A DNA stretch of 64,000 nt, taken from the NCBI GenBank assembly GCA_026992635.1, contig JALWYU010000108.1, positions 28,072-92,071 on the forward strand, in the 5' to 3' direction. Below the pieces are notes generated by a model. The model saw only the letters and a list, made by a program, of their open reading frames with translations. It did no database searches and was not told the origin of the DNA. Origin of the DNA: Bacteroidota bacterium (GTDB lineage Bacteria > Bacteroidota > Bacteroidia > JAADEI01). Position numbers and translations under genes: made by a program. Every line of letters begins with the position of its first letter. Positions within the stretch are counted from its first letter, which is position 1. This document shows, one piece after another, positions 1,897 through 49,994 of this stretch.

Positions 1897-1955
1897 CTGT
1901 CACCCAACCTCCCAAACAACAACACCCAACCCGCAAGTTCCACCTCACGCACAAC

Positions 1956-2372
1956 TCAACACACCGCCCGCTTCAATATGTGCTTCTTCACACTCCGAAC
2001 ACTGTACACCTCCTCCTTCTCCATATCCAAAACCAACCGCCAAGCCTGCATCGTCTTCGCACCTATGATCACATCCTCCGACAATTGATCATCCTCCAGT
2101 ACCAGAAACTCATCACTCAACCACTCCCCATCCAGCCGAAACTCCAACCGAACCGCATACCGCGCCTCTATAAACCTGCCCGGCTCCGCCGTCTCAAAAC
2201 GATATCCAACTCGCGTCGGCAACACCGTCGCCAACCGCTCAGCAACCCCACGACGTACCAGCGACATTGATGCCCCACTATCAAACAATACACGATACCG
2301 ACCCCGCGAGCGATCACCCGCCAACTCCAGCTCCTTGTAGATCACACCCATCTCCAACCACTTCCCCCACAA
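1956..2372 (-). CDS. retropepsin-like aspartic protease, tandem copy 2
   Basis: Near-identical to copy 1 (LFDSGASMSLV, IIGAKTMQAW). The likely start is the internal MGVIY (about 2351). Confidence 0.6.
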   Translation of the reverse strand: MWGKWLEMGVIYKELELAGDRSRGRYRVLFDSGASMSLVRRGVAERLATVLPTRVGYRFETAEPGRFIEARYAVRLEFRLDGEWLSDEFLVLEDDQLSEDVIIGAKTMQAWRLVLDMEKEEVYSVRSVKKHILKRAVC

Positions 2373-2373
2373 C

Positions 2374-2790
2374 TCAACACAACACTCGCTTCAATATGTG
2401 CTTCTTCACACTCCGGGCACTGTAAACCTCCTCCTTCTCCATGTCCAAAACCAACCGCCACTTCTGAAGTGTAGAAGCACCTATGATCACATCCTCCGAC
2501 AATTGATCATCCTCCAATACCAGAAACTCATCGCTCAACCACTCCCCATCCAGCCGAAACTCCAGCCGAACCGCATACCGCGCCTCTATAAACCTGCCCG
2601 GCTCCGCCGTCTCAAAACGATATCCAACTCGCGTCGGCAACACCGTCGCCAACCGCTCCGCAACCCCACGACGTACCAGCGACATTGATGCCCCACTATC
2701 AAACAATACACGATACCGACCCCGCGAGCGATCACCCGCCAACTCCAGCTCCTTGTAGATCACACCCATCTCCAACAACTTTCCCCACAA
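2374..2790 (-). CDS. retropepsin-like aspartic protease, tandem copy 3
   Basis: Near-identical paralog. Its stop codon is separated from the neighbouring copy's start by 1 nt. Carries the DSGAS motif. Confidence 0.6.
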   Translation of the reverse strand: MWGKLLEMGVIYKELELAGDRSRGRYRVLFDSGASMSLVRRGVAERLATVLPTRVGYRFETAEPGRFIEARYAVRLEFRLDGEWLSDEFLVLEDDQLSEDVIIGASTLQKWRLVLDMEKEEVYSARSVKKHILKRVLC

Positions 2791-2791
2791 C

Positions 2792-3232
2792 TCAACACAA
2801 CACTCGCTTCAATATGTGCTTCTTCACACTCCGCACACTGTACACCTCCTCCTTCTCCATGTCCAAAACCAACCGCCACTTCTGAAGTGTAGAAGCACCT
2901 ATGATCACATCCTCCGACAATTGATCATCCTCCAATACCAGAAACTCATCGCTCAACCACTCCCCATCCAGCCGAAACTCCAAAACCACACGATACCGCG
3001 CCTCTATAAACCTGCCCGGCTCCGCCGTCTCAAACCGGTACCCAACTCGCGTCGGCAACACCGTCGCCAACCGCTCTGCAACCCCACGACGTACCAGCGA
3101 CATCGTCGCTCCACTATCAAACAGCACACGATACCGACCCCGCGAGCGATCACCCGCCAACTCCAGCTCCTTGTATATCACGCCCATCGCCAAGCCAATT
3201 TTCCCACGCTCCGGGCTTCTACCACATTCCAC
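2792..3232 (-). CDS. retropepsin-like aspartic protease, tandem copy 4
   Basis: Near-identical paralog (LFDSGATMSLV, IIGASTLQKW). The likely start is MGVIY (about 3187). Confidence 0.6.
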   Translation of the reverse strand: MECGRSPERGKIGLAMGVIYKELELAGDRSRGRYRVLFDSGATMSLVRRGVAERLATVLPTRVGYRFETAEPGRFIEARYRVVLEFRLDGEWLSDEFLVLEDDQLSEDVIIGASTLQKWRLVLDMEKEEVYSVRSVKKHILKRVLC

Positions 3233-23197: not shown

Positions 23198-24268
23198 TCA
23201 CCGGGCAGACCGAACCCGCGCATGCACAATTTGCAGGCGTAACTCTGGCGTGTGCATCAATTCACGGGTTAGCCACCGGGCAAACTCCTCATAAGGCATA
23301 CCTGGCGGCACATACCGGTAAAGGGGGACTTTCAAGCGGGGGAGGGCAAAGGGCTTGGTGCTGAACACTAAGAACAGTGTGAGGATGCCATGGGCATCCC
23401 GCGAATAATACCAGGAGCCTTCCTCTGGCTCGTCAAATAAAACATGCTCGCCCGAAGATAATTGTGCAGGGGCAGTCAGGTCGCCGCCCAGCGGATAAAT
23501 CAAATACACCGAATCACTGGCGTAACTCCCTATGAACACCGCCAGATAACCCGATTCCAAAAGCCGAAAACGCAAATACAGAGGATCGCCCTCAAGAAAC
23601 GTTTCCCGCGCAACAAAATCTTCATACTGGCAGGGGGCACGCGGACACGCTACCAGTGCCAGCTCCCGTGCCGGTAAGTGCGTCCGCTCACGCGGCAACT
23701 CACAGAACTCCGCACGAATCCGACAAGTGAACTGCGGAACGTCCCCTGTGCACGTCATCACTATGCGGTCCTCCAGCAACCGGCGTAGCAAAAAGTACGA
23801 AGAAACCTGCAGATGTTCCACGGCAACCTGCTCGTCCCGCTGGCCACTCCTTAAATACGTCATGCTCCCAAACAGAAATTGAACCTCCGAAGGCGCATAC
23901 ACCAAGGCATTTTTTATCGCTTCCGAACGACACACACTCTTTGCCTGACGTAGCGTCTGGTCTTCTTCCATTGTGGTTTGCGCCTCACCCTGATACACCT
24001 CACAGCGCATCTTACGGGAAGACGAAGACGTACTGCCCGACCCAACCCCTCCACCACTCTGTGCACCTGAAGAGTACGAGGCAGTAGCAGAGGGCGACGA
24101 CGAACCCATCTCACCCCCCGAGCCCGCACCAGAAGAAGACGACGATGAGACAGAACTCAGCATCCAGCAACCCACCAAAAACGCCAAACCCGAAACCACC
24201 AGCTTCTGAAGCATCCACAGAAATTTTTTATGGCTGAAGAAACGCCAGGACAGGTTGTGCCTCCTCAC
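23198..24268 (-). CDS. hypothetical secreted/membrane protein with a Ser/Gly-rich linker; C-terminal region possibly DUF4384-like
   Basis: N-terminal TM/signal segment (LVVSGLAFLVGCWMLSS), a ~60-aa S/G-rich low-complexity stretch, and a C-terminal beta-rich region (GYLAVFIGSYASDSVYLIYP). It is the last gene of the caspase operon and overlaps the upstream gene by 41 nt. Confidence 0.5.
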   Translation of the reverse strand: MRRHNLSWRFFSHKKFLWMLQKLVVSGLAFLVGCWMLSSVSSSSSSGAGSGGEMGSSSPSATASYSSGAQSGGGVGSGSTSSSSRKMRCEVYQGEAQTTMEEDQTLRQAKSVCRSEAIKNALVYAPSEVQFLFGSMTYLRSGQRDEQVAVEHLQVSSYFLLRRLLEDRIVMTCTGDVPQFTCRIRAEFCELPRERTHLPARELALVACPRAPCQYEDFVARETFLEGDPLYLRFRLLESGYLAVFIGSYASDSVYLIYPLGGDLTAPAQLSSGEHVLFDEPEEGSWYYSRDAHGILTLFLVFSTKPFALPRLKVPLYRYVPPGMPYEEFARWLTRELMHTPELRLQIVHARVRSAR

Positions 24269-24989
24269 CCCAGCGCTCCGTCAGCCGCCTGCCAAACTGC
24301 GTGAGCAATGCCTGGCGCTCTACAGCCAGCGTAATCATGCTTTCACACTGGTTTTTCCGACAGCGCGTCAGATACACTACCCCTTCAAAAGGAACATACA
24401 CCACGAGCCGATACCGTTCATCCTCATCCCATAACGTATTGACCATCTGGTAAAAAAGCTCACGGGGCGGAGGCGAATTGCTCTCCACAAACAGGCGCAT
24501 TAACTCCCCATAAAACCGCGAAAGCAACATATTCACTGCGTCGGTGGTCGCCATCTTTACGGCTTCCTGAACCGAAGCACCCTGCCCCACACCCTCACCC
24601 AATAGATACACAGGACGATTCGCACTATCGCGCGCCAGCCGATATTCCGTGGCTGTACAAATCTGGACGCGCAAAGGTGGCATGCCCGTAACAGATGCCC
24701 AGCCCGCCTGCTTCAACAGGGACGCCTCCCGACGACAAACCGCCTGCTCAACCGACGCCCGACCCGGCGCATACACCTTGATACCCCCCACCTGAAACAG
24801 CAATTTTCTTGCTGACGTGGACGTGTCCCCACCCACCTCAAACAACTCCTTTTCCTGTGAAGCCAGATCCGGCATATTTCCTGCGTCCGGCGTACGAAAA
24901 CCCGGCAAAAACCCAACTATACCCATACCCACCACAAAAAGAAGAGCCCACCGGACACCAACCCGACCGACTGACCAACCACCACCCAT
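24228..24989 (-). CDS. hypothetical secreted protein, LPP20-like (tentative)
   Basis: Signal/TM N-terminus. Contains a ...LLGEGVGQGASVQEAVKMATTDAVNML... pattern reminiscent of LPP20-family lipoproteins. This identification is from memory of the family and is unverified. Confidence 0.45.
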   Translation of the reverse strand: MGGGWSVGRVGVRWALLFVVGMGIVGFLPGFRTPDAGNMPDLASQEKELFEVGGDTSTSARKLLFQVGGIKVYAPGRASVEQAVCRREASLLKQAGWASVTGMPPLRVQICTATEYRLARDSANRPVYLLGEGVGQGASVQEAVKMATTDAVNMLLSRFYGELMRLFVESNSPPPRELFYQMVNTLWDEDERYRLVVYVPFEGVVYLTRCRKNQCESMITLAVERQALLTQFGRRLTERWGEEAQPVLAFLQP

Positions 24990-24997
24990 CTCCCCTT

Positions 24998-25654
24998 CTA
25001 TTCTTCGTCGGGAAACGCTTCCTGCTCCAGCCTGTCCAGTTCCTCCTCAAGAGAACGGGCACGCATACGCAAAAACATATACAGGGTTTGCCGGGCAATC
25101 TCTTCTAAGGTTTGCGAAGGAAAGGCGTAGACGAGCCAGACATCCACCTGGGCAGGGTTCCTGGCAAGGTCCCGTTCACGAACCGCCGCCACCACCGGTT
25201 CACTGGCCGCCATTCGTTGCGCCAGAATCTGACGTGCTTGCTCCTCTAAAAGAAGTTTCTGTTCGTCAGGACGTAAATTGCCCCGGGTAGATTCCAGAAT
25301 GTGCGCGAGAAATGTCTGGTATGCTTGCTGGCGTGCCGTCCGAAACGCCTCGGAAAACGTACCGGAGGCACGTCCCTCACCAAACACATATCCCCCCCGC
25401 TTTTGCATTCGGTAGTAGCGACAGACCTCCTGCTGAAGCGAACCCCACAGACCATGCCAGCCTTCCTGGTAAAGACTTCTTGCCTGGTGCACACAGGATT
25501 TTTTCGCTGCAGGTGGTGCCCAGCCAGCCAGCCCCACCAGAAGCCCACCCATCACCCAGGCAACCAGAACAATCCAGCGCATGACCAGAACCCTTTTAAG
25601 AACTTTCACGTCCGCTGTACCCCTACTCTTTTCGTTTTCTACCGGGCGACGCAC
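24998..25654 (-). CDS. hypothetical secreted protein, LPP20-like (tentative), paralogous in pattern to 24228..24989
   Basis: TM/signal (MRWIVLVAWVMGGLLVGLAGWA), then ...VFGEGRASGTFSEAFRTARQQAYQTF... The C-terminal half is a charged coiled-coil-like region. It overlaps the caspase gene's end by 32 nt. Confidence 0.45.
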   Translation of the reverse strand: MRRPVENEKSRGTADVKVLKRVLVMRWIVLVAWVMGGLLVGLAGWAPPAAKKSCVHQARSLYQEGWHGLWGSLQQEVCRYYRMQKRGGYVFGEGRASGTFSEAFRTARQQAYQTFLAHILESTRGNLRPDEQKLLLEEQARQILAQRMAASEPVVAAVRERDLARNPAQVDVWLVYAFPSQTLEEIARQTLYMFLRMRARSLEEELDRLEQEAFPDEE

Positions 25655-28600
25655 CCGGGATCAGCGGAAACGCCCGCCACACCGGATCCGAATAATGCGT
25701 CACCACGGTTGGCGTCTGCTCTTGACCACGTAACAGCACTTTCCCGAGGGTTTCCATCGTCTGATAGAGCGAATCATACATTGTGCCTAAGGTGAGCGCT
25801 TCAATTTGCCGGCTTTGCTCATGGAGCGTGGCAAGCCATGCATAGGTGAACAATCCGTGCCCTAAGGCATCCGGCGCATACGCACGCTGGTCCCGCGTCA
25901 CCGCACTGAACAGAATGGCGTTCTTCTTGGGAAGTATAGCGGTTTGCCCCTGCTGAATCGGCGGACCTGCCCAGGAAACCGCTTTCTCCTGTGGCGTCTC
26001 CGCACCCGTATAACAGGCATCCACAAAAAGAAGGATCCGTTCGGCTTTGGCTTTACTGAGCCGATCTACAATCTCGGCAATAGAAATCAACCCCATAGAA
26101 GGTTCAATAGGTGACAGATCCACCGGGACAAACGAGGGTTGTTTCGTGCCGGGATGCGGTAACCCATGCCCCCGATAGTAGAAAAAGATGTAGGAAGCAT
26201 TTTGCGCACGCTGGGCAAACTCCTGAAGCGCTTTCCGAAATTGCATTGCCGTCAGGTTCTTGTACAGGAATACGTAATTGGGCGGAATACCCAATACCGC
26301 CTGGAAGTATTTGGCGACGAGCTCGCCATCGCGCTCGGCAAACTTCAGGTCGTACCCTCCCATGTAATCCTGATTGACAATGACCAGGGCATAGCAATTG
26401 GGGCAGGTGGCTTGCGTCGCCGGCACCTGCGCCAGATTGATCGGCTGGAAAGGTAACGCCTCCCGCAAATTAATTCGCAGATGCATGGGCTTGCCACTCA
26501 CATCCGTCACCTTGAGGAGGAGCGCCTCGTCCAGTCCCGGCTTCAAGCGCATACCAAAGGAGATCTGTACCGAGCTGGCTGGTCCCAGCAGATCTATTTC
26601 TTTTGGCTGGGGTGCCGACAGGTAAAGCTGATTCCGATAGGCGGGGGGCACCACCAGCGCTAAGCGCAATCCGCGGGCAACCACACTCCCTTCATTCACC
26701 AGGTTCAAATACACACGGACGTACTCATTGGGCTCGGCAATCTGGTTCTGGTTGCCGCTGACTTCCTGAATGTGCGAGACCACCACTTTCAGGTCAGGTT
26801 GCCGATACGGACGAACGCGCAAGGTCAGACGATTCGCATGATCTTCACTGAACTGCTTGGCGCGCAATCCAATAGACAGACGCGTTTCACATTCCTGACC
26901 GTGCAGGCTTTGGGGCTTGAGGGCAATTTTAAACGTGTGCGTTGCACCCGGTGCCAAATACGCCAGACGCAACGTCTCCGCACGAATGCACAGGGGTTCT
27001 GGCGAAAGAATCACGCGCACATTCCGTGCGGCGCCCTGCCCCGTATTCTGCACCCGAACATGCAGAAGTACTTTCTCGTATTCGTCTATGATGTCATCTG
27101 ACCACGTTTCCTCCACAAAAACCGTATCCAGATGAAGGTAAGGTGGATAGCGTGAAGCCCAGAACTGCATGGTTTTGAGCTTATTCTCCAGGACTTCACC
27201 CGAAGCCATACAGGGATGATTCCGCATATGGGGTACAGTTGGCGCGAGAAACCAGCGAGCACTGTCTTCTATTCGGAAAGCGTATCCAATGGGTATGGTG
27301 TCCCCCTCCCAGTTGAGCCCCCAAACGGCGTAAGCCTGCGTCTCATGCCAGCGCGCCTTAAACTGGCGGGCTTCCTCTAAGGGAATATACAGGCGAAGCA
27401 ATTGTCCGTCAATCTGCGCAGGAAAGAACTGTTCATCAGGATTGTAACGCTCCACCTGCTGGATCGTCGCAGGCTCCAGCATACAGTAGTGGACCAGGCG
27501 TTTCTGTGCCAGCTCATACGCATTCTCTAGGAATGACCGCCACGTAGAACAGGCAAGCTGGCGCGCACGACGCCGACGTGCTTCATATTCCTGGCGGGGC
27601 TCAAACTCGCCACGGGGCGCAAACAACTGGGCGTGCGCACGCCACACCGCCTGCAAACTGTCCTGGAGGAACGTCGCCAGAATATGCATCCGCATGTGTT
27701 TGTCGTGCAGTTGTTCACGTATACAGGCTTCTGGCGAAGGACTGACTCCCCTGACAACCTGAACACAACACTTGTGAATCAACGCGTCGGAAACCGACAA
27801 CCACTCCGTAAGCAAATCCGAACAATAAGTTTGCAAAATCGTATCGGACATGTGCATAAAGATGGTGGGTGTCATCCGGTGAAGGGGATACAGGAAGACG
27901 CGTGCCTGATCGCCCGCCACCGCCAGCCATAAACCCTGTGGAGCAAATGCTAAGGTATGCACAGTGGTCAGAGGCGTCTTGAGCGTTTCTACCGTAAGCG
28001 ACATGGGCTGGACTTTCCATCGGGGACGACGACGCCTGCCCCGACGGGAAACTTCCTGATATTGAGCCCGTTGCTTCTGACGCTGAAGATCCCGTTCAAA
28101 ATTCCATAAAAAGACCATGTGGCTTTCGCCACCCACCGCTAAGATCCTGCCCGTCGGATCTAAAGCCAAGGCACGAACACGTGCCGGACTGAACTCCGAA
28201 AAAGAAAAGGTCAGGAGCTCCCGGGCTTGCACTTGGGTACCCACGCGATCCGCAAGCACACGCCACAAATAGACGTCCCCATCACTGCCCCCCGAAAAAA
28301 GCATTGCCCCATCGGAAGTCCACACTAATGCATGCACCCAGCCCAAATGCGCGGAGATCTTTCCCAGATAAAGGATGCTGTCCAGGTGTTCCGTGTCCAG
28401 ATAAAGAATATGAATGTTGCCGGTGTGGGCGCCTACCGCCAGAAGCTTCCGCTGAGAGGTATAGCTCATTGCCGTGAGCCAGAGCCAATCCCCCAGACCA
28501 ATGGTTTTAATCAGCTGGCGCGTCCGCGCATCGCGCACCTCCAGCACGCCATCCTCCCTGCCCAAAAGGAAAATCCGATTCAGCGCAAGAACCGCCGTGT

Positions 28601-29087
28601 ACTGCAGTTGCGTTTTCAGGTCAGGAATAAAAAATGTGCCACTGCCCTGTTTCCAGTAGCGGACCTGCCCATTCGTAAGCAAAACAAGGAAATAATCCCC
28701 TCGCGGAGAGGGACTGACCTTCCGAATGGACTGGGCAAACGCCCGATGGACAAACGGATGGAGGTTGGGCACTTTCCCTTTCCAGACGTTGATGCCTCCG
28801 GGACGCGTCACCGCCACAAACCAGTCTTTGCACGGCAGGAAAAACACGGATTGGACGGGCGCACCCTCTGTGCCACGGACCGCGCGCGTCGTGAGCGTAA
28901 CGGCTTCTTCCATAGACCGGGCGTCCGAAGCAGACGCCACAGCCCGATACCCCACCAGAGAGACATACATCCAGAAAGCCACACCAAACATCAGCAATCG
29001 CACCAGAAATCCCCTGCTGCAGGAACTGGGTGACCAGCCCAATTGCGTGCCCCTGAGTTTTCCTGGCTTTTCTTCTCTGGGTGGCAT
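25623..29087 (-). CDS. large membrane-anchored WD40-repeat protein with a C-terminal caspase-like (peptidase C14) domain
   Basis: N-terminal TM segment (FLVRLLMFGVAFWMYVSLVG) and WD40-like repeats (GHTGNIHILYLD..., SGGSDGDVYLWRV, ...LWNF). C-terminal caspase hallmarks: YALVIVNQDY, FFYYRGHG (catalytic His-Gly) and ILLFVDACYTG (catalytic Cys). Confidence 0.8.
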   Translation of the reverse strand: MPPREEKPGKLRGTQLGWSPSSCSRGFLVRLLMFGVAFWMYVSLVGYRAVASASDARSMEEAVTLTTRAVRGTEGAPVQSVFFLPCKDWFVAVTRPGGINVWKGKVPNLHPFVHRAFAQSIRKVSPSPRGDYFLVLLTNGQVRYWKQGSGTFFIPDLKTQLQYTAVLALNRIFLLGREDGVLEVRDARTRQLIKTIGLGDWLWLTAMSYTSQRKLLAVGAHTGNIHILYLDTEHLDSILYLGKISAHLGWVHALVWTSDGAMLFSGGSDGDVYLWRVLADRVGTQVQARELLTFSFSEFSPARVRALALDPTGRILAVGGESHMVFLWNFERDLQRQKQRAQYQEVSRRGRRRRPRWKVQPMSLTVETLKTPLTTVHTLAFAPQGLWLAVAGDQARVFLYPLHRMTPTIFMHMSDTILQTYCSDLLTEWLSVSDALIHKCCVQVVRGVSPSPEACIREQLHDKHMRMHILATFLQDSLQAVWRAHAQLFAPRGEFEPRQEYEARRRRARQLACSTWRSFLENAYELAQKRLVHYCMLEPATIQQVERYNPDEQFFPAQIDGQLLRLYIPLEEARQFKARWHETQAYAVWGLNWEGDTIPIGYAFRIEDSARWFLAPTVPHMRNHPCMASGEVLENKLKTMQFWASRYPPYLHLDTVFVEETWSDDIIDEYEKVLLHVRVQNTGQGAARNVRVILSPEPLCIRAETLRLAYLAPGATHTFKIALKPQSLHGQECETRLSIGLRAKQFSEDHANRLTLRVRPYRQPDLKVVVSHIQEVSGNQNQIAEPNEYVRVYLNLVNEGSVVARGLRLALVVPPAYRNQLYLSAPQPKEIDLLGPASSVQISFGMRLKPGLDEALLLKVTDVSGKPMHLRINLREALPFQPINLAQVPATQATCPNCYALVIVNQDYMGGYDLKFAERDGELVAKYFQAVLGIPPNYVFLYKNLTAMQFRKALQEFAQRAQNASYIFFYYRGHGLPHPGTKQPSFVPVDLSPIEPSMGLISIAEIVDRLSKAKAERILLFVDACYTGAETPQEKAVSWAGPPIQQGQTAILPKKNAILFSAVTRDQRAYAPDALGHGLFTYAWLATLHEQSRQIEALTLGTMYDSLYQTMETLGKVLLRGQEQTPTVVTHYSDPVWRAFPLIPGASPGRKRKE

Positions 29088-32605: not shown

Positions 32606-34933
32606 ATGGTCATAGGGAGGATCCTCTTGACAGGCATCCCCTTAACCACCCTCCTGCTCTCCACACTCACCACACACGCCAACAACTGTTCCTCACCCAT
32701 TTCCATCAACTCCTTCCCCTACACGTACAGTGGCACGCTCTGTGGTGCCGGCGACAACTTTCCCGCTCCCCTTTGCGGACAGACTGGGTGGGGTGCTTCT
32801 GAAGACATGGTCTTCGTTGCCAACCTCCAGGCAGGCGCCACCTACGAAATCACTGTAACTGTGGGCAGCGGCAATGCCGGTGCCTTCCTCTTCCAGACGT
32901 GCGACCCTAACGCCTGCATCATCTCATTGACATCCAACGCCAGCTCTGCTACGTGGTGCGTCACCATTCCCAGCTCCGGCACCTGGTATATTGTGGTGGA
33001 TCGCGACGCCGCCGGGTGCTCCACCTTCTCCCTGAATATCGTTGAAGACGTCGCACCACCCACAGGCTGGTCTATGTTCAACGGAACCATTAATACCTGC
33101 TCTGGCACCCTTTATGACCCCGGTGGCCCCAATTGCAACTACGGTGATAACCAGTATGCCCAAACCGTCATCTGTCCCACTACACCAGGGCAATGCATTC
33201 AGCTGGACTTCACTTCCTTTGACCTGGAAAACACCTTTGATTACCTGGATGTCTATGATGGCGATGAATGCGCCAATACACCCATCGCCAGCTACACCGG
33301 AAACACCAGCCCAGGCACTGTAACCGCAACCGGACTTTATGGAAATGGCTGCCTTACACTGGTGTTCTCTTCCGACGGCTCCGTCAATTATACCGGTTTT
33401 TCCGCCAACATTTCCTGTGTACCCTGCAGTGCCTCACCCATCAGTGGTTCCACCGTCAATATGCAATCCGGCATCTGGTACACGTGCGGAGGCACTTTCT
33501 ATGATTCTGGTGGACCCCTCAACGACTACAGCAACAACGAAGACTACACCCTCGTGATCTGCCCCTCTACACCAGGACAATACATCACAGTCAATTTCAC
33601 CTCCTTCAACATAGAAAACAATTTTGACTACCTTTACATCTACGACGGCATTGGAAGTTGCGGTACTTGTCTGGGAGAATTCACCGGCACCACCTCGCCC
33701 GGTACCATCACCGCCTCTTCATCCAATGGATGCCTCACATTCCAGTTTCAGAGCGACGGAAGTATTACATATCCCGGATGGCAGGCAACCATCTCGTGTT
33801 CTTCCACGCCAGGCGCCAATACATCCACTGGATCTTCCTGTCTGACACCGCTCTGTCTGCTCAACACCAACTCAGGCACTTACACCCCATTCAACACACT
33901 TTGTGGTGACTCCTGGAACTTCCCAGCCTGTGGGGGCTGCCCCTCCTTCAATAACGTGGACTATCCCTACTTCTTCACATTCACGATTGCTTCCGGCGGC
34001 ACCCTCCTCTTCACCATCACACCCTCTGGAACCCACGACTTAGACTGGGCACTGTGGCAAATCCCCGATCCCTACGACTGCTCATCGCTGGGTCCACCCA
34101 TTCGTGCCTCCTGGGATGCACCCCCACCCTACTCTACAGGGCTTGCTGTAGGCGAAACCGATGTGTGCGAATGCGCCAGTGGCAGTGGATACGTAGCACC
34201 GCTCACTGTCAATGCCGGCGAGTCCTATCTGCTGGTCATAAACGATTGGTCCGCACCCCCACCTGAGGATTTCACCCTGGACTTCACCGGAACCACTGCC
34301 ACCTTCTCCAATAACACAGACGACTGCCCATCTAATGTACTTCCCCTGGCATTCATCAAGATGGAAGCCCATCCTCAAAAAGAGGGAATTGAACTCACCT
34401 GGTACGGCATCGCCCCCGAAGGCATAGACGGCAGAATCCAGATCTGGAAAGAATCGCCCGACAACCCCAAAGCCAGACAAAAAATCCATGAACGCCTCGC
34501 CAACCCCGGACCCTTCCAGGGCTCATTCATAGACTACACCCCGGAGACACCAACCCCAACAAGCCCTGCCATGCATGTTTACCGGATCGTCCTCTATGAC
34601 GTGGCACGCCATGCGACCATCGCCGAAGACCGAATCGTCGTCACCCAAAACGCAACCACTCCAGGCTCCATCTCCTACACACTGGGCACCGGATACATCC
34701 AGCTCCTGATCTCCGGAACAGGTGAACAACCCCCAACATACCTCAGACTCTATAGCCTGGATGGCAAAACCCTCTGGCAATGGAATACTCAGCGCTGCGG
34801 TATCAAAACCCGAAACCCCAACACCTACACATTCCGAATCCCCACACACAACCTCCAGCAGGGAATCTACCTCCTGGAAGTGGAATGGCTCTCAGGACAA
34901 CGATCCCACGAACGCATCATACTCACACCTTAA
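32606..34933 (+). CDS. T9SS-secreted protein with an N-terminal Cys-rich PPC-like domain, two CUB domains and a type A C-terminal sorting domain
   Basis: CUB-like segments: CSGTLYDPGGP.C.YGDNQYAQTVICPTTPGQCIQLDFTSFDLENTFDYLDVYDGDEC...GFSANISC and CGGTFYDSGGP...FDYLYIYDG...GWQATISC. Signal peptide present. The C-terminus GIYLLEVEWLSGQRSHERIILTP resembles the Por CTD. Confidence 0.7.
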   Translation: MVIGRILLTGIPLTTLLLSTLTTHANNCSSPISINSFPYTYSGTLCGAGDNFPAPLCGQTGWGASEDMVFVANLQAGATYEITVTVGSGNAGAFLFQTCDPNACIISLTSNASSATWCVTIPSSGTWYIVVDRDAAGCSTFSLNIVEDVAPPTGWSMFNGTINTCSGTLYDPGGPNCNYGDNQYAQTVICPTTPGQCIQLDFTSFDLENTFDYLDVYDGDECANTPIASYTGNTSPGTVTATGLYGNGCLTLVFSSDGSVNYTGFSANISCVPCSASPISGSTVNMQSGIWYTCGGTFYDSGGPLNDYSNNEDYTLVICPSTPGQYITVNFTSFNIENNFDYLYIYDGIGSCGTCLGEFTGTTSPGTITASSSNGCLTFQFQSDGSITYPGWQATISCSSTPGANTSTGSSCLTPLCLLNTNSGTYTPFNTLCGDSWNFPACGGCPSFNNVDYPYFFTFTIASGGTLLFTITPSGTHDLDWALWQIPDPYDCSSLGPPIRASWDAPPPYSTGLAVGETDVCECASGSGYVAPLTVNAGESYLLVINDWSAPPPEDFTLDFTGTTATFSNNTDDCPSNVLPLAFIKMEAHPQKEGIELTWYGIAPEGIDGRIQIWKESPDNPKARQKIHERLANPGPFQGSFIDYTPETPTPTSPAMHVYRIVLYDVARHATIAEDRIVVTQNATTPGSISYTLGTGYIQLLISGTGEQPPTYLRLYSLDGKTLWQWNTQRCGIKTRNPNTYTFRIPTHNLQQGIYLLEVEWLSGQRSHERIILTP

Positions 34934-43139: not shown

Positions 43140-43712
43140 ATGATTCTTTCCGACAAGGAAATCCTGAAGGAAATTACCCGGGGAACTATCGTCATTCGTC
43201 CATTTCGCAAAGAATGCCTGGGTTCCAATTCCTACGATGTTCATCTGGGGCGGACACTCTTAGTTTATCGGACGCGCGTCTTAGACGCACGCTATCCCAA
43301 TCCCGTGGAAACCATTACGATTCCCGACGAGGGATACGTCCTTCAACCAGGCAAGCTCTACCTGGGCGTAACCGAAGAATACACCGAAACGCACAAACAC
43401 GTCCCCTTCTTGGAAGGGAAATCCAGCATTGGCAGGCTGGGGATTTTCATCCACGCCACGGCAGGGAAAGGCGACGTCGGATTCTGCAACCACTGGACAC
43501 TGGAAATCTTTTGCGTTCAGCCCGTACGCATCTATGCAGGCATGCCCATTGGGCAATTGATTTTCTTTGAGGTGAAGGGGGAAGTGCAGACGCCTTATAC
43601 GCAAAAGCCCTCTGCCAAGTACACAGACGTCTCTCCGCTGCCCCAACCTTCCCGCCTATGGAAATGGTTTCAATCCAGTGCGTGGAGCACGTGCCCGGAC
43701 GATGGACGCTAA
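43140..43712 (+). CDS. dcd: dCTP deaminase
   Basis: MILSDKEILKEI...SNSYDVHLG...EGKSSIGRLG are typical of Dcd and the dUTPase superfamily. Confidence 0.85.
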   Translation: MILSDKEILKEITRGTIVIRPFRKECLGSNSYDVHLGRTLLVYRTRVLDARYPNPVETITIPDEGYVLQPGKLYLGVTEEYTETHKHVPFLEGKSSIGRLGIFIHATAGKGDVGFCNHWTLEIFCVQPVRIYAGMPIGQLIFFEVKGEVQTPYTQKPSAKYTDVSPLPQPSRLWKWFQSSAWSTCPDDGR

Positions 43713-44320
43713 GAGGCAATAGCTGGCAGGCACTCATCGCCTATTTGCCCCGACAAACAGGAGCATCAGCCTGTCAGCACCTCGCTGAGCAGCTCACCGG
43801 CATCACACCCACAACGAAATGGGCGGGACGTCCCTGGCGTCCAGGCAGTCCCTGGCTGTTTTCCTGGAGCCATGCCCCTCCCTGGTATGGCGTACTGGTC
43901 AGTCCAGTGCCTGCAGGCATTGATTTGCAACCCAACACACCGCGCCTGCAAACGGTTGCACCACGAATTGCCCATCCTGGCGATGACCTCTCACAACTGC
44001 CTGCCTCGGTTCGTCCCCTGTGCCTCTGGGTGGCAAAAGAAGCGGTTTATAAGGCGGGAGGGGGCGCCGGCTATGGCTTGTGGAGTGGTCAGCGTATTCT
44101 GATTCGTATTGTGCGTCGTACGGTGTGGCAGCAGGTAGAATTCTGGTGGTTTGTCTGGTGGATGCCCTTAGGCGTACAGGGTCAGGGCGTGTGCTGGTGG
44201 TGGCATCACCCTGGCAATTCGTCAGATCATCAGGAAGAGAGTCAGTTCTCTTCCGGTATGAATCTGATGGCAGGTAGCCTCGCCTGGCTGGGAACTCTTT
44301 CCCCAGAATATCTGTTATAG
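43658..44320 (+). CDS. 4'-phosphopantetheinyl transferase (Sfp/EntD-type) family protein
   Basis: FSWSHAPPWYGVLVSPVPAGIDLQ (PPTase motif fS.SH...GiDiE-like) and LWVAKEAVYKAGG (W..KEA..K motif). The ORF overlaps the dcd 3' end. Confidence 0.55.
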   Translation: MEMVSIQCVEHVPGRWTLRGNSWQALIAYLPRQTGASACQHLAEQLTGITPTTKWAGRPWRPGSPWLFSWSHAPPWYGVLVSPVPAGIDLQPNTPRLQTVAPRIAHPGDDLSQLPASVRPLCLWVAKEAVYKAGGGAGYGLWSGQRILIRIVRRTVWQQVEFWWFVWWMPLGVQGQGVCWWWHHPGNSSDHQEESQFSSGMNLMAGSLAWLGTLSPEYLL

Positions 44321-44331
44321 TAGTTGGGGGC

Positions 44332-44415
44332 GCCCGGGTGGCGGAACTGGTAGACGCGGCGTCTTGAGGGGGCGCTGCCCGTCAGGGCGTGCGGGTTCGA
44401 CTCCCGCCCCGGGCA
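44332..44415 (+). tRNA. tRNA-Leu (anticodon GAG), class II with long variable arm
   Basis: Manual fold: acceptor GCCCGGG/CCCGGGC, anticodon stem GCGTC/GGCGC with loop TTGAGGG, 15-nt variable arm, T-arm GCGGG-TTCGACT-CCCGC. Confidence 0.8.
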
Positions 44416-44447
44416 CACCCACCTTATTCACCGCGACATCAATCAGT

Positions 44448-44521
44448 GGGGCCGTAGCTCAGCTGGCTAGAGCGTCGGCTTTGCAAGCCGGAGGTCACGG
44501 GTTCGAATCCCGTCGGCTCCA
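44448..44521 (+). tRNA. tRNA-Ala (anticodon TGC) with the G3:U70 identity pair
   Basis: Manual fold: acceptor GGGGCCG/CGGCTCC (G3-U70), anticodon loop TTTGCAA, T-arm ACGGG-TTCGAAT-CCCGT, discriminator A. Confidence 0.85.
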
Positions 44522-44830
44522 CATCATGCCTCTTGCACAGGATGCCAGAACTATAGCTACTCGCAATTGCGTCAGTTTAGCGCCAGCCCTCCTCAACCAC
44601 CCACCCACTCAAACAATCAGACGAAATCAGAAGACATAACGATAGGCTGGCGTCCGTCAGCGTATAGGAGTCAGTTAAAGCGGTGCCTGAAAGAAAAGGA
44701 GAGGCGCACGAAAAAAACGAAACGCTCAAACAGGAGAAAGCCCCCCCTGAAGAGAAAACGGAAAGCCTGGAGAAACTTTTACGGGAGAAATAGGGTAGAT
44801 TAAGAAATAGAAGTAGAAAATCCGGGTCAA
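44522..44830 (+). repeat. leader repeat R1 (~290 bp, purine-rich noncoding), ~88% identical to R2
   Basis: Direct alignment with 45951..46245. Key strings such as ttgcacaggatgcc, gaactatagctac, caattgcgtcagtttag, aacaatcagacgaaat and cttttacgggagaaatagggtagatta are shared. Confidence 0.75.
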
Positions 44831-45469
44831 ATGATAGGAATCAATCCCGTCATGTCAAGCATCATTGTAATTGCCCCTGCCGTGAAGCGTCTTCCGGAAA
44901 AGGGACCCATATCCACTCCTTTGCCTGAGTTAATCAGCTACCTGCTAAAAGAATATCGGCAGTTGTCCTCTTTTGAAGAAAAGAAAAAGTTCATTGAGAG
45001 GCAAACAGCCCAATTCACCATGGCGCTATTTGATTACTTCATGGAAGAGTTGAAGAAAATCGATCCCGGCAAGTTCAAAGCAGATCTGCAAAAGGCACTT
45101 CCTGCCATTGAACGGATTCTGCAAAGTGAGATCCCTGACGTTGAGCTCGTTCAGGAAATCGTTGAATTCCTGGATATCTTACTGAGCATCCGGGAGGAGA
45201 TGGCAAGACAGGCTGAACAATATCCGGAACTCGCGGAAGAGTTTTTTGAGCATTACATGCGTTTTGTCCTTGCCCTGATCCTATCGGTTGAGTCATATAG
45301 GATGGACAAAAATCCAGAAGACCTGCAGGTCCTTGAATATTTCTATGACGATTCCGATGTTGCCCTGGACAGGTTTATGTTGAAGGAATATCTGGATGCA
45401 GTTGGAGAGCTGGTTAAGACGCTCTCAAAGTATGAAAGAAAAGACGATGAACGGATCCAACCCCTGTGA
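44831..45469 (+). CDS. cassette protein A1: ~212-aa all-helical hypothetical protein (antitoxin position)
   Basis: Homologous to A2 over ~170 aa (…K.KFI…F…F.F……………LK..LP…..LQSEIP.PELV…Y.LL.FIL…EIMERAEQYPE.AE.F…YI.F.L…T.Y……P..LQVLE.F…D.ALD..MLKEY.DAV…). No recognisable catalytic motif. Confidence 0.6.
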   Translation: MIGINPVMSSIIVIAPAVKRLPEKGPISTPLPELISYLLKEYRQLSSFEEKKKFIERQTAQFTMALFDYFMEELKKIDPGKFKADLQKALPAIERILQSEIPDVELVQEIVEFLDILLSIREEMARQAEQYPELAEEFFEHYMRFVLALILSVESYRMDKNPEDLQVLEYFYDDSDVALDRFMLKEYLDAVGELVKTLSKYERKDDERIQPL

Positions 45470-45803
45470 GGAGGTTAAGATTTGTGTGGTTGATAAGAAC
45501 AACTGGGAAGCATATAAGAAGCATGCTTCTGAGGTTGAACAAGCTCTGGACAGGTTTCGGAAAGATGTGCAAACAGGAATAGTCTGGAATAAACTTGTCA
45601 AGTTAAAAGGCATCAGTGAAGCCGGACCATTATACCGATACCGCCACGGCAGAATTCGGCTGATTATAGCCATTATTGTGCAGAAGCAACTCATTTATAT
45701 CGTTGAAGCACTGTATAGGCGAGAAGGCATTTACAGGCGGAGAATGCTGGATCAGATAATCAAGAAAGTCAAAGCCTTAACTGCTACTTTTAGGGAAGAA
45801 TAA
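45396..45803 (+). CDS. cassette protein B1: RelE/ParE-superfamily-like small protein (toxin position)
   Basis: KLKGISEAGPLYRYRHGRIRLIIAIIVQKQLIYIVEALYRREGIY fits the RelE/ParE core pattern (L.G...lyElR.g.yRiiY.i......i.il.i.HR...Y). The ORF overlaps the A1 stop, indicating translational coupling. The real start is probably MKEKTMNG or MNGSNP (about 45432-45447). Confidence 0.55.
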   Translation: MQLESWLRRSQSMKEKTMNGSNPCEEVKICVVDKNNWEAYKKHASEVEQALDRFRKDVQTGIVWNKLVKLKGISEAGPLYRYRHGRIRLIIAIIVQKQLIYIVEALYRREGIYRRRMLDQIIKKVKALTATFREE

Positions 45804-45950
45804 TCAACGCATAAACACAAACAGGCAGACAGATTTGTGTAAAGATGTTAGATTCATAATAATATCCCCTGTTTACCCCGAAGTGGACATGCCCGGGAAA
45901 AGTAGGACAGAAGCCGTTTTTAGAGGGGGGCGAATCCCGTCGGCTCCACA

Positions 45951-46245
45951 TCGTGCCTCCTTGCACAGGATGCCTGAACTATAGCTACCCCCAATTGCGT
46001 CAGTTTAGAGCCAGCCTCCTCAACCACCCACCCAAACAATCAGACGAAATTCAGAGGACATAGCGATCGGTTGGCGTCCGTCAGCGTATAGGGATCAGCT
46101 AAAACGGTGCCTGGAAGAAAAAGAGAGGCGCACGAAAGAAAACGAAAGCCTCAGACAAGAAAAAGCTCCCTTGAAGAGAAAACGGAAGTCCTGAAGAAAC
46201 TTTTACGGGAGAAATAGGGTAGATTAAAGTAGAAACGCTGGAGCA
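45951..46245 (+). repeat. leader repeat R2 (copy of R1)
   Basis: See R1. The few indels relative to R1 are not codon-preserving, so the region is noncoding. Confidence 0.75.
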
Positions 46246-46920
46246 ATGCTCATAGACGGTCAACTCACGCACACATTCCTGGTGCTTGCATCCAATTTCA
46301 CCTCAAAATCCGTGAGGAAGTTTCCGGCAATTTCCAGATTTATTCGTGTTGAAGATGAAATCACAGAAGAAGAGTTCATAGATGTGCTCAGGGAGCTGCT
46401 CGACAAGTATCGTCAATGCCCTAACCTGGAGGCAAAACAGAAGTTTATTAAGGATAATGCCGGAAAGTTTGCGCTCTTTCTGTTCAGGTTCTTTAAAAGG
46501 AAACTGGAAAGGGTGGACCTGGATCAGTTTGCTGATAAATTAAAGCAGGTGTTACCAGTTTTAAAACAGCTTATGCAAAGTGAAATCCCTGAGCCCGAAC
46601 TTGTTGAAGATATTTATGATCTTCTCGGCTTTATTCTGAAAAATCGTAAAGAAATAATGGAACGTGCAGAGCAGTATCCGGAAAGAGCAGAATTTTTCGT
46701 TAACAGTTATATAGAGTTCCTCCTGTCAATGGCTTTGACCACTGAAGCTTACTCTATCACACGCAATCCCGACGAATTGCAGGTTCTTGAATCGTTCCTG
46801 AACATGGCTGACTACGCGCTTGATGAACTTATGCTGAAGGAATATATGGATGCAGTTGTTCAGCTGGCTGAGGAGGTTGTAAAAAAAGAAGATGATAGCA
46901 AGAATGGTTCGCAGGTATGA
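46246..46920 (+). CDS. cassette protein A2: ~224-aa all-helical hypothetical protein, paralog of A1
   Basis: Alignable with A1 (about 35-40% identity by eye). AT-rich codon usage. Confidence 0.6.
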   Translation: MLIDGQLTHTFLVLASNFTSKSVRKFPAISRFIRVEDEITEEEFIDVLRELLDKYRQCPNLEAKQKFIKDNAGKFALFLFRFFKRKLERVDLDQFADKLKQVLPVLKQLMQSEIPEPELVEDIYDLLGFILKNRKEIMERAEQYPERAEFFVNSYIEFLLSMALTTEAYSITRNPDELQVLESFLNMADYALDELMLKEYMDAVVQLAEEVVKKEDDSKNGSQV

Positions 46921-47182
46921 AATAAAGTGCTACAGGCGCGAGATATGGAGTGCCTCCAAGAAGCATGGAAAAGAGGTTGATAAAGCGATTCAGAAGCTTA
47001 AAGCGGAATTAGACACGATTGGAGTGGCTGGGCTGATCAAAACGAACAAATTATTTCTGGTCATAAAATCAGATTTCAGCGAGTTTTACATTATTGATGC
47101 CGAACTCAGACAGGATGATACTTATGAACGTATTCGGGAGCGCTTGCTGAGAAGGATAAAATCACTGCTTCGCAGCTTATAA
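46892..47182 (+). CDS. cassette protein B2: small protein, diverged paralog of B1 (RelE/ParE-like)
   Basis: YEIKCYRREIWSASKKHGKEVDKAIQKLKAELDTIG aligns with B1 VKICVVDKNNWEAYKKHASEVEQALDRFRKDVQTG. The ORF overlaps the A2 stop by 29 nt. Confidence 0.5.
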   Translation: MIARMVRRYEIKCYRREIWSASKKHGKEVDKAIQKLKAELDTIGVAGLIKTNKLFLVIKSDFSEFYIIDAELRQDDTYERIRERLLRRIKSLLRSL

Positions 47183-47564
47183 AGGCAAGGGCCGCTTTGA
47201 GCGGTGTGCAATCGTTATTGTGTGGCATAAAGTCAGTACCTAAAGGATAAAGCACTCTGAGTTGTGCTTAGTTTACCCCGAGATGGACACGCCCGGAGAA
47301 GTAGAGCATAAGCCGTTTCCAGGAGCGGGTTCGCTCTCCCCCAAAACCGGAGCTTTCTCTTTTTGCGCATAATAGAGAAGCACGCGATACACTGGAAGTG
47401 GGACTCAACAGGGTCTTGGACACTCTTTGGCACCTACGTCTGCCTAATGGAGCACACCCTATGGCTTCGCAACCGCTGGCTATCCATTGACTTGTGTACC
47501 GCCCGTGGACTTTCGGAACCAAAATCCTCAGCCATCACACAACACGCCAAATGCCAGGCGCCAA

Positions 47565-49994
47565 TCACCGCGTCTCCAACCGCCGAAGCTCTATGTTCTC
47601 CTGCAGTTTGGGTTTGCGCACATAACCCCTGCTCAGCGCAATTTGCACCCAGCAGATCACGAGCGGCGCACTCCATGCACGCGCAAACACCGGTGAAACA
47701 TCCAGATAAGAGGACGAGTACCACCCCTCACCCCAGTATACATTCGCCAGATTTAAATTCAGGATCTGCGCCATCGCAGGAATCGCATAAAACAACCGGA
47801 AATGCACACGGCGCTTCGCTAAAGCCTGCCCCCAACCCACAAACAACACACCATCAATCTCACGACGATAACCCTGCGGATGCACATACACTGAAGGACG
47901 ACGCTCACCATGAAGGATTAGCCTTGCCTTCATCCGCGGAAAGTGCAGCATCACAGTAGTATTCAACACCCAGCGCCTGACCACCGACTCAGCATCCTGC
48001 CACCGCGCCCGCGCTACATACCCCCCTGCTGTGAATTGAATGAAAATCCGTTTATGAACGGGTAAGAGTCCTGACAGCTGTCCTCCCACCTTTAGATAAG
48101 CGCTATGCTGAGGGACAGCCAGCAGTACCGAATCCCATAACTGATAGACCGTGTAAATCTTGCCCGGCGCATACGTCAAATAAGGCTTCAGGTAAACCCT
48201 GCCCTTCCAGAAGCGCAACTCGGCATATGCCGTGTGTTCATAGTAGGGTGTCAGGTTGGGATTGCCAGTTTGAAAAACCGCCACGCTCGTGAAGGTAGGC
48301 AAAGGTGCTTGTTGACGGGCAGTAGGAACAATCCGCTCCACCTGATAATGAACACGAAGGGCAACACCATTCTTCCACTGGCGAAAAAGACTGAGCATGG
48401 GAAAGAACTCCCAGTTCCACTCTGTGTGGAGCTGGTACAGCGACACGCCCGCCTGAAAATGAAAACGCCAGTTCTGGAGCAACGAACCTGCCAGACCTGC
48501 AAAGAGCCGGTGAGCCACAAACCGGTAACGATACAGCAGTACGTGCGAGTCGGGCTCGCTCACAACAGGCTGTGCAGTGATCTGCCGGAGGTCTGCCGCA
48601 CTCCATTTCCCCTCTAAGATGTAACCGCCCGTCCATTCATAACTCGCGCGAGGATAGCGCACGGTAAAGAATGAGTAGGTTTCCCAGCCTCGCTCATCCC
48701 GAAGTGAGTACATCTGGAGCTGTCCAGGAATGATGAGCTGGTGCTGACTGAAGGTGTGGACAGGCGTCCACTCACTCTGAATTTCAATAGCAACACCCGA
48801 AGCGAGTTTCTTCTGGTAGAAACCCGTAATATGCCAGTAACTTCTGGAAACCCGCTGGGTAATGGTCATAGAGAAGGTGTCGGGCTGAGCGCCAGCACCC
48901 GCATCCTCCCACCAGAAAAGCTGTGCCCTTCGCTGGAGATTGACCTGATCACTCTGGTGGCGCACCTTAACGCCTGTATGTTGCCCAGCACCCAGTGCAT
49001 AACTCAACACACCTTCACCGTAATTCCACCGGGTACGCATAAAGCTGTTGATTGGCAGGTTCAGTTCGGGAAGGGCTTCCCACTGCCAGCGAGAAGTTCC
49101 CACTGTCCCCTGGTAAATTGCCGGGAAGTTCTCCCCGTGATGAACACCTTCTGCCGACAATGTCCACCGGTTGAGGGTTACAGTACCTGTAAAGGACCCA
49201 TCCGTTTGCGTGTATCCCTCAGGAAGAGGAATGAAGTTGGTGCCGCCACCCGGCGAAAGCGTAACATCGTATCCGGTATAACGCCGACGTGTGATGATTT
49301 GTATGATGGCGTCATACCCCTCAAAGGTAAACCTGCCCGTAGGGACACGAATCACCTCTACGCGCTGAATCCGTTTCGGATCCATGTTCAGGACATACTG
49401 TGGTGAGCGCTCCACACCATCTACAAGATAAAGAACGTTAGATGAGCCCGCCACTTTGAGAGCGTTGGTCAGAGGATCGTAAGTGATTGTGGGCAGCTGC
49501 TGGAGGATTTCCCGCGCATGTGTATGCACACGACGCATGGAATCCGTGAGAATGTACACGTCCTTATCCAGACGCGTAACCTGAGCAGATGCCCGGATGT
49601 CCACAGCGCGCAACCGTTGCGTATCTCGCCTGAGAAGGAGAAGACCCAGATCCGTATCTTCGTTCAGGGATAAGTGATTGAGTGTATCGGACTTGTAGCC
49701 CATCGCTGAGATGACAATCCGGTAGATACCCGGGGGCAACATCAAAGTAAATTTCCCGTCAATTTGCGTAAACGTGAACCAGCGTTGTGTATCTGCAGAA
49801 AGTGCTTGCTGAGCAGTGATGGTGGCAAGGATAGGCAAACCCGTCTCCGCATCGCGTACCTGCCCTTCCACCAGCACCTGACTGTGCAGGCCGATGGGAC
49901 TGAACGTGCTTGCAAACAGCAGGATTAAAGTGCAAAGTCGCTTCCACCCATCAACAAAGCCTACACCCCTACCCCGAATTGCGATTCCCCCCAT
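47565..49994 (-). CDS. TonB-dependent receptor with an N-terminal carboxypeptidase-regulatory-like domain
   Basis: Signal peptide. CarbopepD_reg-like LVEGQVRDAETGLPILATIT...PPGIYRIVISAMGY. Plug motif VLYLVDGVERSPQYVLNMDPKRIQRVEVIRVPTGRFTFEGYDAIIQIITRR. Long beta-barrel region. Confidence 0.7.
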   Translation of the reverse strand: MGGIAIRGRGVGFVDGWKRLCTLILLFASTFSPIGLHSQVLVEGQVRDAETGLPILATITAQQALSADTQRWFTFTQIDGKFTLMLPPGIYRIVISAMGYKSDTLNHLSLNEDTDLGLLLLRRDTQRLRAVDIRASAQVTRLDKDVYILTDSMRRVHTHAREILQQLPTITYDPLTNALKVAGSSNVLYLVDGVERSPQYVLNMDPKRIQRVEVIRVPTGRFTFEGYDAIIQIITRRRYTGYDVTLSPGGGTNFIPLPEGYTQTDGSFTGTVTLNRWTLSAEGVHHGENFPAIYQGTVGTSRWQWEALPELNLPINSFMRTRWNYGEGVLSYALGAGQHTGVKVRHQSDQVNLQRRAQLFWWEDAGAGAQPDTFSMTITQRVSRSYWHITGFYQKKLASGVAIEIQSEWTPVHTFSQHQLIIPGQLQMYSLRDERGWETYSFFTVRYPRASYEWTGGYILEGKWSAADLRQITAQPVVSEPDSHVLLYRYRFVAHRLFAGLAGSLLQNWRFHFQAGVSLYQLHTEWNWEFFPMLSLFRQWKNGVALRVHYQVERIVPTARQQAPLPTFTSVAVFQTGNPNLTPYYEHTAYAELRFWKGRVYLKPYLTYAPGKIYTVYQLWDSVLLAVPQHSAYLKVGGQLSGLLPVHKRIFIQFTAGGYVARARWQDAESVVRRWVLNTTVMLHFPRMKARLILHGERRPSVYVHPQGYRREIDGVLFVGWGQALAKRRVHFRLFYAIPAMAQILNLNLANVYWGEGWYSSSYLDVSPVFARAWSAPLVICWVQIALSRGYVRKPKLQENIELRRLETR

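Follow-up and report, generated by a model that had tools for sequence, protein, structure and literature searches.

Introduction

The tandem genomic islands inserted at ssrA in Dehalococcoides (ssrA-GIs) have a low GC content and are delimited by 20-bp repeats of the ssrA 3' end, which start midway in the T-loop (McMurdie et al. 2011, PMC3146451). Directly upstream of each repeat stands a conserved short motif that cannot be aligned with the RNA gene. These islands extend over many kb with rdhA as cargo, a serine recombinase (DsiB) module is present in sibling islands and dozens of repeats are found across the strains; 15 ssrA-GIs are without an integration module and were read as cis-mobilizable elements (CIMEs; PMC3146451). 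Here we analysed a stretch of 64,000 nucleotides (nt) from a Bacteroidota bacterium (GCA_026992635.1, contig JALWYU010000108.1, positions 28,072 to 92,071), called the window below, in which two tandem units of about 1.4 kb each follow the 3' end of a tRNA-Ala(UGC) gene. The array of about 2.8 kb had been noticed in a first-pass annotation made from the letters alone. It was probably, though far from certainly, formed when two non-autonomous integrative islets, similar to CIMEs, accreted in tandem at the T-loop/3' end of this tRNA gene.

The array shares with the ssrA-GIs that low-GC units lie in tandem behind a tRNA-like gene and that the block of identity begins in the T-loop. In contrast to them, the units are only 1.4 kb long and only two in number, they target tRNA-Ala, and an integrase is not known for them. 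The CIMEs of the ICESt1/ICESt3 family have no integration or transfer genes, keep their attL and attR sites and stand in tandem at the 3' end of the target gene after successive integrations (PMC5704250). They derive by decay from integrative and conjugative elements (ICEs) or integrative and mobilizable elements (IMEs), and a functional element next to them mobilises them in cis (PMC5704250). Unit 1 of the array likewise has attachment sites without integration or transfer genes, with an exact core on both sides, and the attR of unit 2 is degenerate. In descent the array differs from these CIMEs: remnants of integrase, relaxase or type IV secretion system genes were not found in it, no ICE or IME is adjacent and both units have the same minimal design.

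In the tycheposon islands of Prochlorococcus, serial integrations targeted to tRNAs push the older ones outward, and the islands are strewn with partial tRNAs and degenerate remnants that have no integrase (bioRxiv 10.1101/2020.12.28.424599). Tycheposons are 10-20 kb long and encode a recombinase, either of the tyrosine or of the large serine type, and in most cases also a replication module (bioRxiv 10.1101/2020.12.28.424599). The array shares the tRNA target, but neither unit contains a recombinase or replication gene, and the likeness to tycheposon cargo drawn in the first-pass annotation fails on the recombinase.

Integron cassettes, among them the toxin-antitoxin cassettes of chromosomal superintegrons, are tandem, integrase-less units of about 1 kb with conserved recombination ends and variable cargo, and some of them bring along a promoter of their own as well as a toxin-antitoxin pair. 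The array resembles them in the scale of its integrase-less tandem units and in the conserved ends around variable cargo. It differs in that there is no IntI/attI platform and no attC-type hairpin (the end regions have fold z-scores of +0.1 to +1.1), the boundary is a tRNA 3' fragment and only two units are present. No Phage_integrase domain was found in the window, and the array abuts a tRNA. A comparison with integron cassettes, made when the array was first noticed, does not hold for the features tested: the hairpin, the IntI platform and the promoter-like block, of which each unit carries its own.

The array is inserted at the tRNA-Ala 3' end

Two contigs of a sister species were obtained by exact-protein look-ups, L002 from the assembly GCA_027048825.1 and L004 from ENA ERZ23495399, and both are 82-86% identical to the window at the nucleotide level. 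On both contigs the gene order is dCTP deaminase, a 220-residue open reading frame (ORF), tRNA-Leu, tRNA-Ala and then a receptor-like gene with CarboxypepD_reg and outer membrane protein (OMP) beta-barrel domains. In the window, tRNA-Leu(GAG) (44332..44416, + strand; ARAGORN and Rfam) forms the host context directly upstream, followed by tRNA-Ala(UGC) (44448..44522, + strand; ARAGORN and Rfam, 72.5 bits), the presumed integration target on the attL side. The distance from tRNA-Ala to the receptor gene (47565..49994, - strand) is 190 nt in L002 and L004 versus about 3,040 nt in the window. The BLAST homology to the sister species runs up to the final base of tRNA-Ala (44522) and restarts at 47565, the stop codon of the receptor gene, where the synteny resumes. 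Since the sister species has the same synteny but only about 190 nt at this place, the comparison marks the array as an insertion, with its start exactly at the 3' end of tRNA-Ala. An empty tRNA-Ala site in relatives, which the first-pass annotation had named as a check on its reading, is therefore present in both contigs.

As expected for a tRNA-integrated islet, the target tRNA is intact at the start of the insertion and a relative has the empty site. A distal direct repeat of the tRNA 3' end is also present, exact over 20 nt for unit 1 and reduced to an 8-nt T-arm remnant for unit 2. The GC content of the array is 0.448, as compared to a mean of 0.543 (standard deviation 0.016, minimum 0.491) in 556 other windows of equal size from the same stretch, and lies about 6 standard deviations below that mean, so that the visibly AT-richer composition reported at first was confirmed. 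The region is probably a horizontally acquired insertion of about 2.8 kb, and its composition is foreign.

The tRNA end of the sister species, CGAGTCCCGTCGGCTCCACC, has two differences from the core in the window, where both copies have A/A and the sister has G/C. The A/A in both cores would fit an element that re-supplies the tRNA 3' end; divergence between the species could also explain it. On the right side, the approximately 110 nt following the T-arm remnant gave no significant alignment with the intergenic region of the sister species, and the right boundary can therefore be placed only between 47340 and about 47450.

The host lineage (Bacteroidota/FCB group) is almost unsampled. In a survey of GTDB, none of the 20 loci checked had the tRNA-Leu/tRNA-Ala pair beside dCTP deaminase, and the dCTP deaminase of the nearest GTDB representative is 78% identical in amino acids. 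The same species, with 100% identical DNA or proteins, occurs in Logan SRR14510437 and in ENA ERZ23491050 (JOHN19-1), on the contigs L005, L089/L092 and L090/L091. The Trp-rich ORF of 220 residues in the conserved gene order (43658-44320, + strand) overlaps the 3' end of dCTP deaminase by 55 nt and stops 12 nt before tRNA-Leu; it belongs to no Pfam family, and a search of 5.8 billion clusters gave a single homologue, that of the sister species (83% identity).

Each unit consists of a tRNA core, a leader, two genes and an end motif

The last 20 nt of tRNA-Ala(UGC), CGAATCCCGTCGGCTCCACA, make up the first core copy (44504..44523, + strand). They had been said to recur exactly at 45931..45950, and an exact pattern search confirmed this second copy (+ strand), which is the junction between unit 1 and unit 2. 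The window has exactly these two matches even when three mismatches are allowed, and two matches were obtained in 0 of 100 shuffled sequences.

The first core is followed by leader 1 (44524..44830, + strand), which is non-coding and purine-rich and is a candidate for the P'-arm of an attachment site and for a promoter region. Two overlapping genes follow on the + strand, A1 (44831..45469, 212 residues) and B1 (45447..45803, 118 residues). Unit 1 ends with end motif 1 of 49 nt plus TTAGAGGGGGG (45871..45930, + strand), a candidate P-arm that directly abuts core copy 2. Unit 2 has the same order on the same strand with leader 2 (45951..46245), gene A2 (46246..46920, 224 residues), gene B2 (46904..47182, 92 residues) and end motif 2 (47271..47318). 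The first-pass annotation had given a leader of about 290 bp and a two-gene module for each unit; the leaders are 307 and 295 nt long and the ORFs overlap in both units, by 23 nt in A1/B1 and by 17 nt in A2/B2. The leaders are about 90% identical in the ungapped columns, with several 1-nt indels.

The end motif sequence GTTTACCCCGARRTGGACAYGCCCGG was found in the window only at 45871 and 47271. The shared end motif is thus real and unique to these two sites, but its conserved part is about 49 nt long (45871-45919 versus 47271-47318, 41 of 49 positions identical, about 84%) and not the 55 nt reported before.

A degenerate T-arm-like remnant had also been described at the end of unit 2. It is present at 47326..47340 (+ strand), begins with CGGGTTCG, the 5' half of the tRNA-Ala T-arm, is located after end motif 2 and is presumably a decayed attR. 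The 8-mer CGGGTTCG occurs five times in the window, two of them within tRNAs, with 2.5 expected. The remnant lies in the same register as the G-run before the junction core, and the chance that CGGGTTCG falls into this slot of about 20 nt was estimated to be about 4e-4.

In front of gene A1 lies a promoter-like block (44761..44830, + strand) that blastn and alignment showed to be kept in all three known cassettes, namely unit 1, unit 2 and a third one on the contig L001. It includes an exact repeat of 32 nt (44772-44803 = 46196-46227), and is a putative promoter. Leader 2 holds a purine-rich 21-nt repeat in 2.4 tandem copies at 46115-46165, which is weaker in leader 1 (44690-44740), and upstream of the promoter-like block the leaders have recurring AGAAAACG(A/G)AAG and CGTCAG motifs. 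The tandem repeat and these motifs could be operator or arm-type binding sites.

Other roles of the non-coding parts were considered. A structured RNA was rejected: the only Rfam matches above threshold are the two tRNAs, and the leaders and end motifs showed no stable RNA structure, with fold z-scores of +0.1 to +1.1 against shuffled sequences on both strands (leader 1, +0.8). A basic ORF of 78 residues in leader 1 (44567-44803) was also rejected as coding, as the 1-nt indels break its frame and unit 2 has no equivalent. Two explanations are left: leader and end motif may be bound by proteins, as attachment arms, operator or promoter, or they may just share a recent ancestry.

The flanks and the genes have different ages

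The A and B coding parts of the two units share about 52% of their nucleotides, whereas the leaders, cores and end motifs are 84-100% identical between the units. The proteins A1 and A2 are 38% identical and their synonymous sites are saturated (proportion of synonymous differences pS 0.82).

The only other known cassette, L001, is a 1,423-nt ENA contig (ERZ23495399 scaffold_80906) from the same metagenome as the relative L004 with the empty site, and it has a different upstream context from the units of the window. When L001 was compared with unit 1 (44761-45803), the promoter block and most of gene A were 83% identical in nucleotides (81% in amino acids), but the C-terminus of A and the B protein had diverged (B, 34% amino acid identity). 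The 300 nt upstream in L001 showed no significant similarity to the leader in the window. A degenerate tRNA-Ala core about 275 nt upstream of the L001 gene A was tried and rejected, as 33% of the shuffled sequences scored equally.

Between A1 and the A protein of L001 the number of substitutions per synonymous site (dS) is 0.73, similar to the host genes between the two species (dCTP deaminase 0.65, receptor 0.87). Because A1 and A2 are saturated while A1 and L001-A match the host genes, the A1/A2 split is older than the split of the species. Intergenic DNA of the ordinary kind can no longer be aligned between the two species. By these comparisons the flanks share a far more recent common origin than the cargo, and the cassettes are mosaic.

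A local duplication had been named at first as the alternative to mobility. In its plain form, a tandem duplication followed by drift, it is excluded on these sequence distances because the flanks are about 90% identical around genes that have 38% amino acid identity and saturated synonymous sites. The options left are two integrations of related elements that share their arms, or a duplication with later replacement of the cargo or homogenisation of the flanks.

A and B form an orphan two-gene operon

In type II toxin-antitoxin operons of the RelBE/ParDE kind, two overlapping ORFs encode an acidic protein and, downstream of it, a basic one of about 100 residues. The A proteins are acidic (isoelectric point 4.6-4.8; A1, 4.7) and the B proteins basic (isoelectric point 9.8). 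A and B thus show the type II organisation of a compact operon with coupled ORFs for an acidic and a basic partner.

An exhaustive HMMER profile search of the representatives of about 15 billion proteins found only three A proteins: A1, A2 and P0002 on L001. B is confined to the same loci as A. Neither family was found in Pfam, NCBIfam or PADLOC, and no homologues beyond the window and L001 were detected by a word-indexed search, exhaustive HMMER, PHROGs, a PDB sequence search, or in IMG/VR, plasmids and phages. By these searches A and B constitute a true orphan two-gene operon. In Logan, the proteins of unit 2 are recorded but not A1 and B1 of unit 1.

A is an orphan with a predicted all-helical structure (mean predicted local distance difference test, pLDDT, of 69), and a fold search with the model gave no PDB match at E <= 0.001. 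The ratio of nonsynonymous to synonymous substitutions (dN/dS) between A1 and L001-A is 0.13, and by this measure A is clearly functional and under purifying selection. A2 is an ancient paralogue of A1.

The AlphaFold2 model of B has low confidence (pLDDT 49) and the order beta-alpha-beta-beta-beta-alpha, and the fold search likewise found no PDB match at E <= 0.001. The top PHROG match of B1 was phrog_1213, 'RelE-like toxin', which is weak (E = 0.027) but nearly full-length, with residues 33-93 of B1 aligned to profile positions 22-85 of 88. Neither hhalign against E. coli RelE nor the PDB sequence search was significant for B. B1 and B2 are about 24% identical, and B2 is without a central segment of about 21 residues (YRYRHGRIRL...) that is found in B1 and L001-B.

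The operon is like RelBE/ParDE in its acidic A and basic B, in the ORF overlap, in standing on an acquired islet and in the predicted secondary structure order of B1. In contrast to RelBE/ParDE, A has 212-224 residues and no DNA-binding antitoxin domain can be recognised in it, the central strands are lost from B2 and the match of B falls short of significance. To interpret the operon as a toxin-antitoxin-like pair is reasonable but unproven.

No recombinase and no further copies were found

All ORFs of at least 180 residues in the window were scanned with Pfam, and those without a match were rerun at E <= 0.05. The scan found housekeeping and surface proteins only, with no integrase, recombinase, resolvase, transposase or excisionase domain. 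This agrees with the first-pass annotation, in which no integrase, excisionase or transposase had been seen in or next to the array.

The promoter block pattern had 0 matches in the GTDB representative genomes, and the end motif pattern had 0 in the IMG/VR viral contigs and the JGI metagenome contigs. A 20-mer of the leader was not present in IMG/VR and had three chance matches in the JGI metagenome contigs, none of which extend. The whole array had no match in the plasmid and phage collections. Further copies of the unit or the end motif, as the first-pass annotation had anticipated for a mobile element, were thus not found in the collections scanned. Because the lineage is almost unsampled, this absence is weak evidence.

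Origin of the array

In the accretion of two islets that we favour, each islet would consist of the tRNA 3' core, a non-coding arm of about 300 nt with a promoter, the A/B operon and a distal arm of 49 nt. An element with an attP site of the order end motif - core - leader would recombine with a tRNA attB that already holds an earlier element, so that the tRNA 3' end is re-supplied and the older element moves outward. Serial integration of this kind is expected to leave the observed order (tRNA - core - unit 1 - core - unit 2 - decayed core), in which case unit 2 would have integrated first and unit 1 later. The junction at 45871-46245 would then be a preserved attP-like site. The origin would be recombinase-mediated, and the recombinase, encoded neither by the islets nor within the 64 kb, would have acted in trans or have been lost since. 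Unit 1 with its two exact cores might in principle still be excisable and unit 2 not, and the present array may be fixed. Of the serial site-specific integration proposed at first, the insertion at the tRNA 3' end, the tRNA repeats and the foreign composition are borne out; a cognate integrase and a circular or excised form were not seen.

Several observations weigh against this origin. No integrase was found in the 64-kb window nor among the called genes of the neighbouring contigs, and no leftover integration or transfer genes point to decay from a larger element. A third copy of the leader or end motif was not present in the collections scanned (GTDB, IMG/VR, JGI, plasmid, phage). The right attR does not have the intact core that is expected, as only CGGGTTCG is left and the similarity falls abruptly beyond it. 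The comparison is with a single sister lineage, and the tandem order comes from a single metagenome-assembled contig, at the repeats of which the Logan contigs break.

A different origin, which we regard as unlikely, is one ancient integration after which unequal crossing-over between the tRNA-derived repeats duplicated the unit and the cargo was replaced or the flanks were gene-converted, with no second site-specific event and no current mobility. Unequal crossing-over of attL with attR would give exactly the junction observed (end motif - core - leader), only two copies exist at a single locus and no integrase was found. That homologous exchange does happen is shown by the mosaicism between L001 and unit 1, where the promoter and most of A are 83% identical in nucleotides and B is 34% identical in amino acids. 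Such an origin, however, needs two extra events to account for about 90% identical flanks around synonymously saturated genes. In addition, the sequences to the left of the two cores, which should be identical after the duplication, differ sharply, with about 84% identity in the neighbouring end motif.

It is also conceivable, but quite improbable, that the units belong to a new cassette system, a tRNA-anchored functional analogue of integrons. A dedicated but unlinked recombinase, or A/B through some activity of their own, would add promoter-bearing, integrase-less cassettes one after another at tRNA-Ala; each would have a 5' recombination site (tRNA core and 300-nt leader) and a 3' site (49-nt motif), and cargo would be swapped between the conserved ends. 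Three observations would fit such a system: both units are built on the same minimal plan and bear no sign of integration genes, their flanks are conserved around cargo that varies, and A and B have no detectable homologues or folds. Against it, these flanks are known from only two cassettes, no others turned up in the scanned collections, and the third cassette on L001 differs in the upstream region. No stable hairpin forms at the ends, A as an acidic bundle of helices resembles no recombinase and the lineage is too poorly sampled to reveal an array of more than two. The new kind of cassette suggested in the first-pass annotation drew no support from any of the tests and is unneeded, as tandem integrase-less islands with repeats of tRNA or tmRNA 3' ends have already been described (PMC3146451, PMC5704250, bioRxiv 10.1101/2020.12.28.424599).

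An assembly artefact, in which two strain alleles of a one-cassette locus were concatenated through the shared core and leader, is very hard to credit: the source is a metagenome-assembled contig and the contigs of the independent Logan assembly are interrupted at the repeats (the end of L005 falls in tRNA-Leu, and L089 begins at 46198 in the 32-nt exact leader repeat), but the left side of the junction is unique (end motif 1 plus GAGGGGGG, not the tRNA T-stem) and joined to leader-2-specific variants, the exact overlap with the path from tRNA to leader 1 is about 23 nt and thus under the usual final assembly k-mers, and an end motif with core must lead into something, for which a tandem unit or an attR are the sole options. 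The break at L089 shows that both leader variants coexist in SRR14510437.

If the accretion of two islets is true, the array is a compact and clean example of this process at a tRNA attB in an almost unsampled lineage of the FCB group. The intact attP-like junction would be a defined substrate for identifying the tRNA-Ala-specific recombinase of the lineage. The young flanks and the ancient cargo would have had separate histories at the kilobase scale, and the orphan A and B could be a new toxin-antitoxin or defence pair. In other respects the array is ordinary, since integrase-less islets with tRNA-end repeats are well documented, and this one is unusually small and tidy.

Other features of the window

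Several genes elsewhere in the window were also noted. A protein of 1,154 residues with WD40 repeats and a C-terminal caspase (Peptidase_C14) domain is encoded at 25623-29087 (- strand). Downstream of it, three ORFs on the same strand (23198-25654, - strand) had weak Pfam matches only (E of about 0.02-0.04, including DUF4384). CUB domains are mostly known from animals; a protein of 775 residues encoded at 32606-34933 (+ strand) has two confident ones (E = 1e-21). Downstream of a class II (D/K/N-type) aminoacyl-tRNA synthetase gene, at about 1329-3187 (- strand; 11870-13728 on L090), lies a run of three ORFs of about 130 residues with a fourth of 89 residues among them, and two of the three gave weak or faint matches to retropepsin-like proteases (Asp_protease_2).

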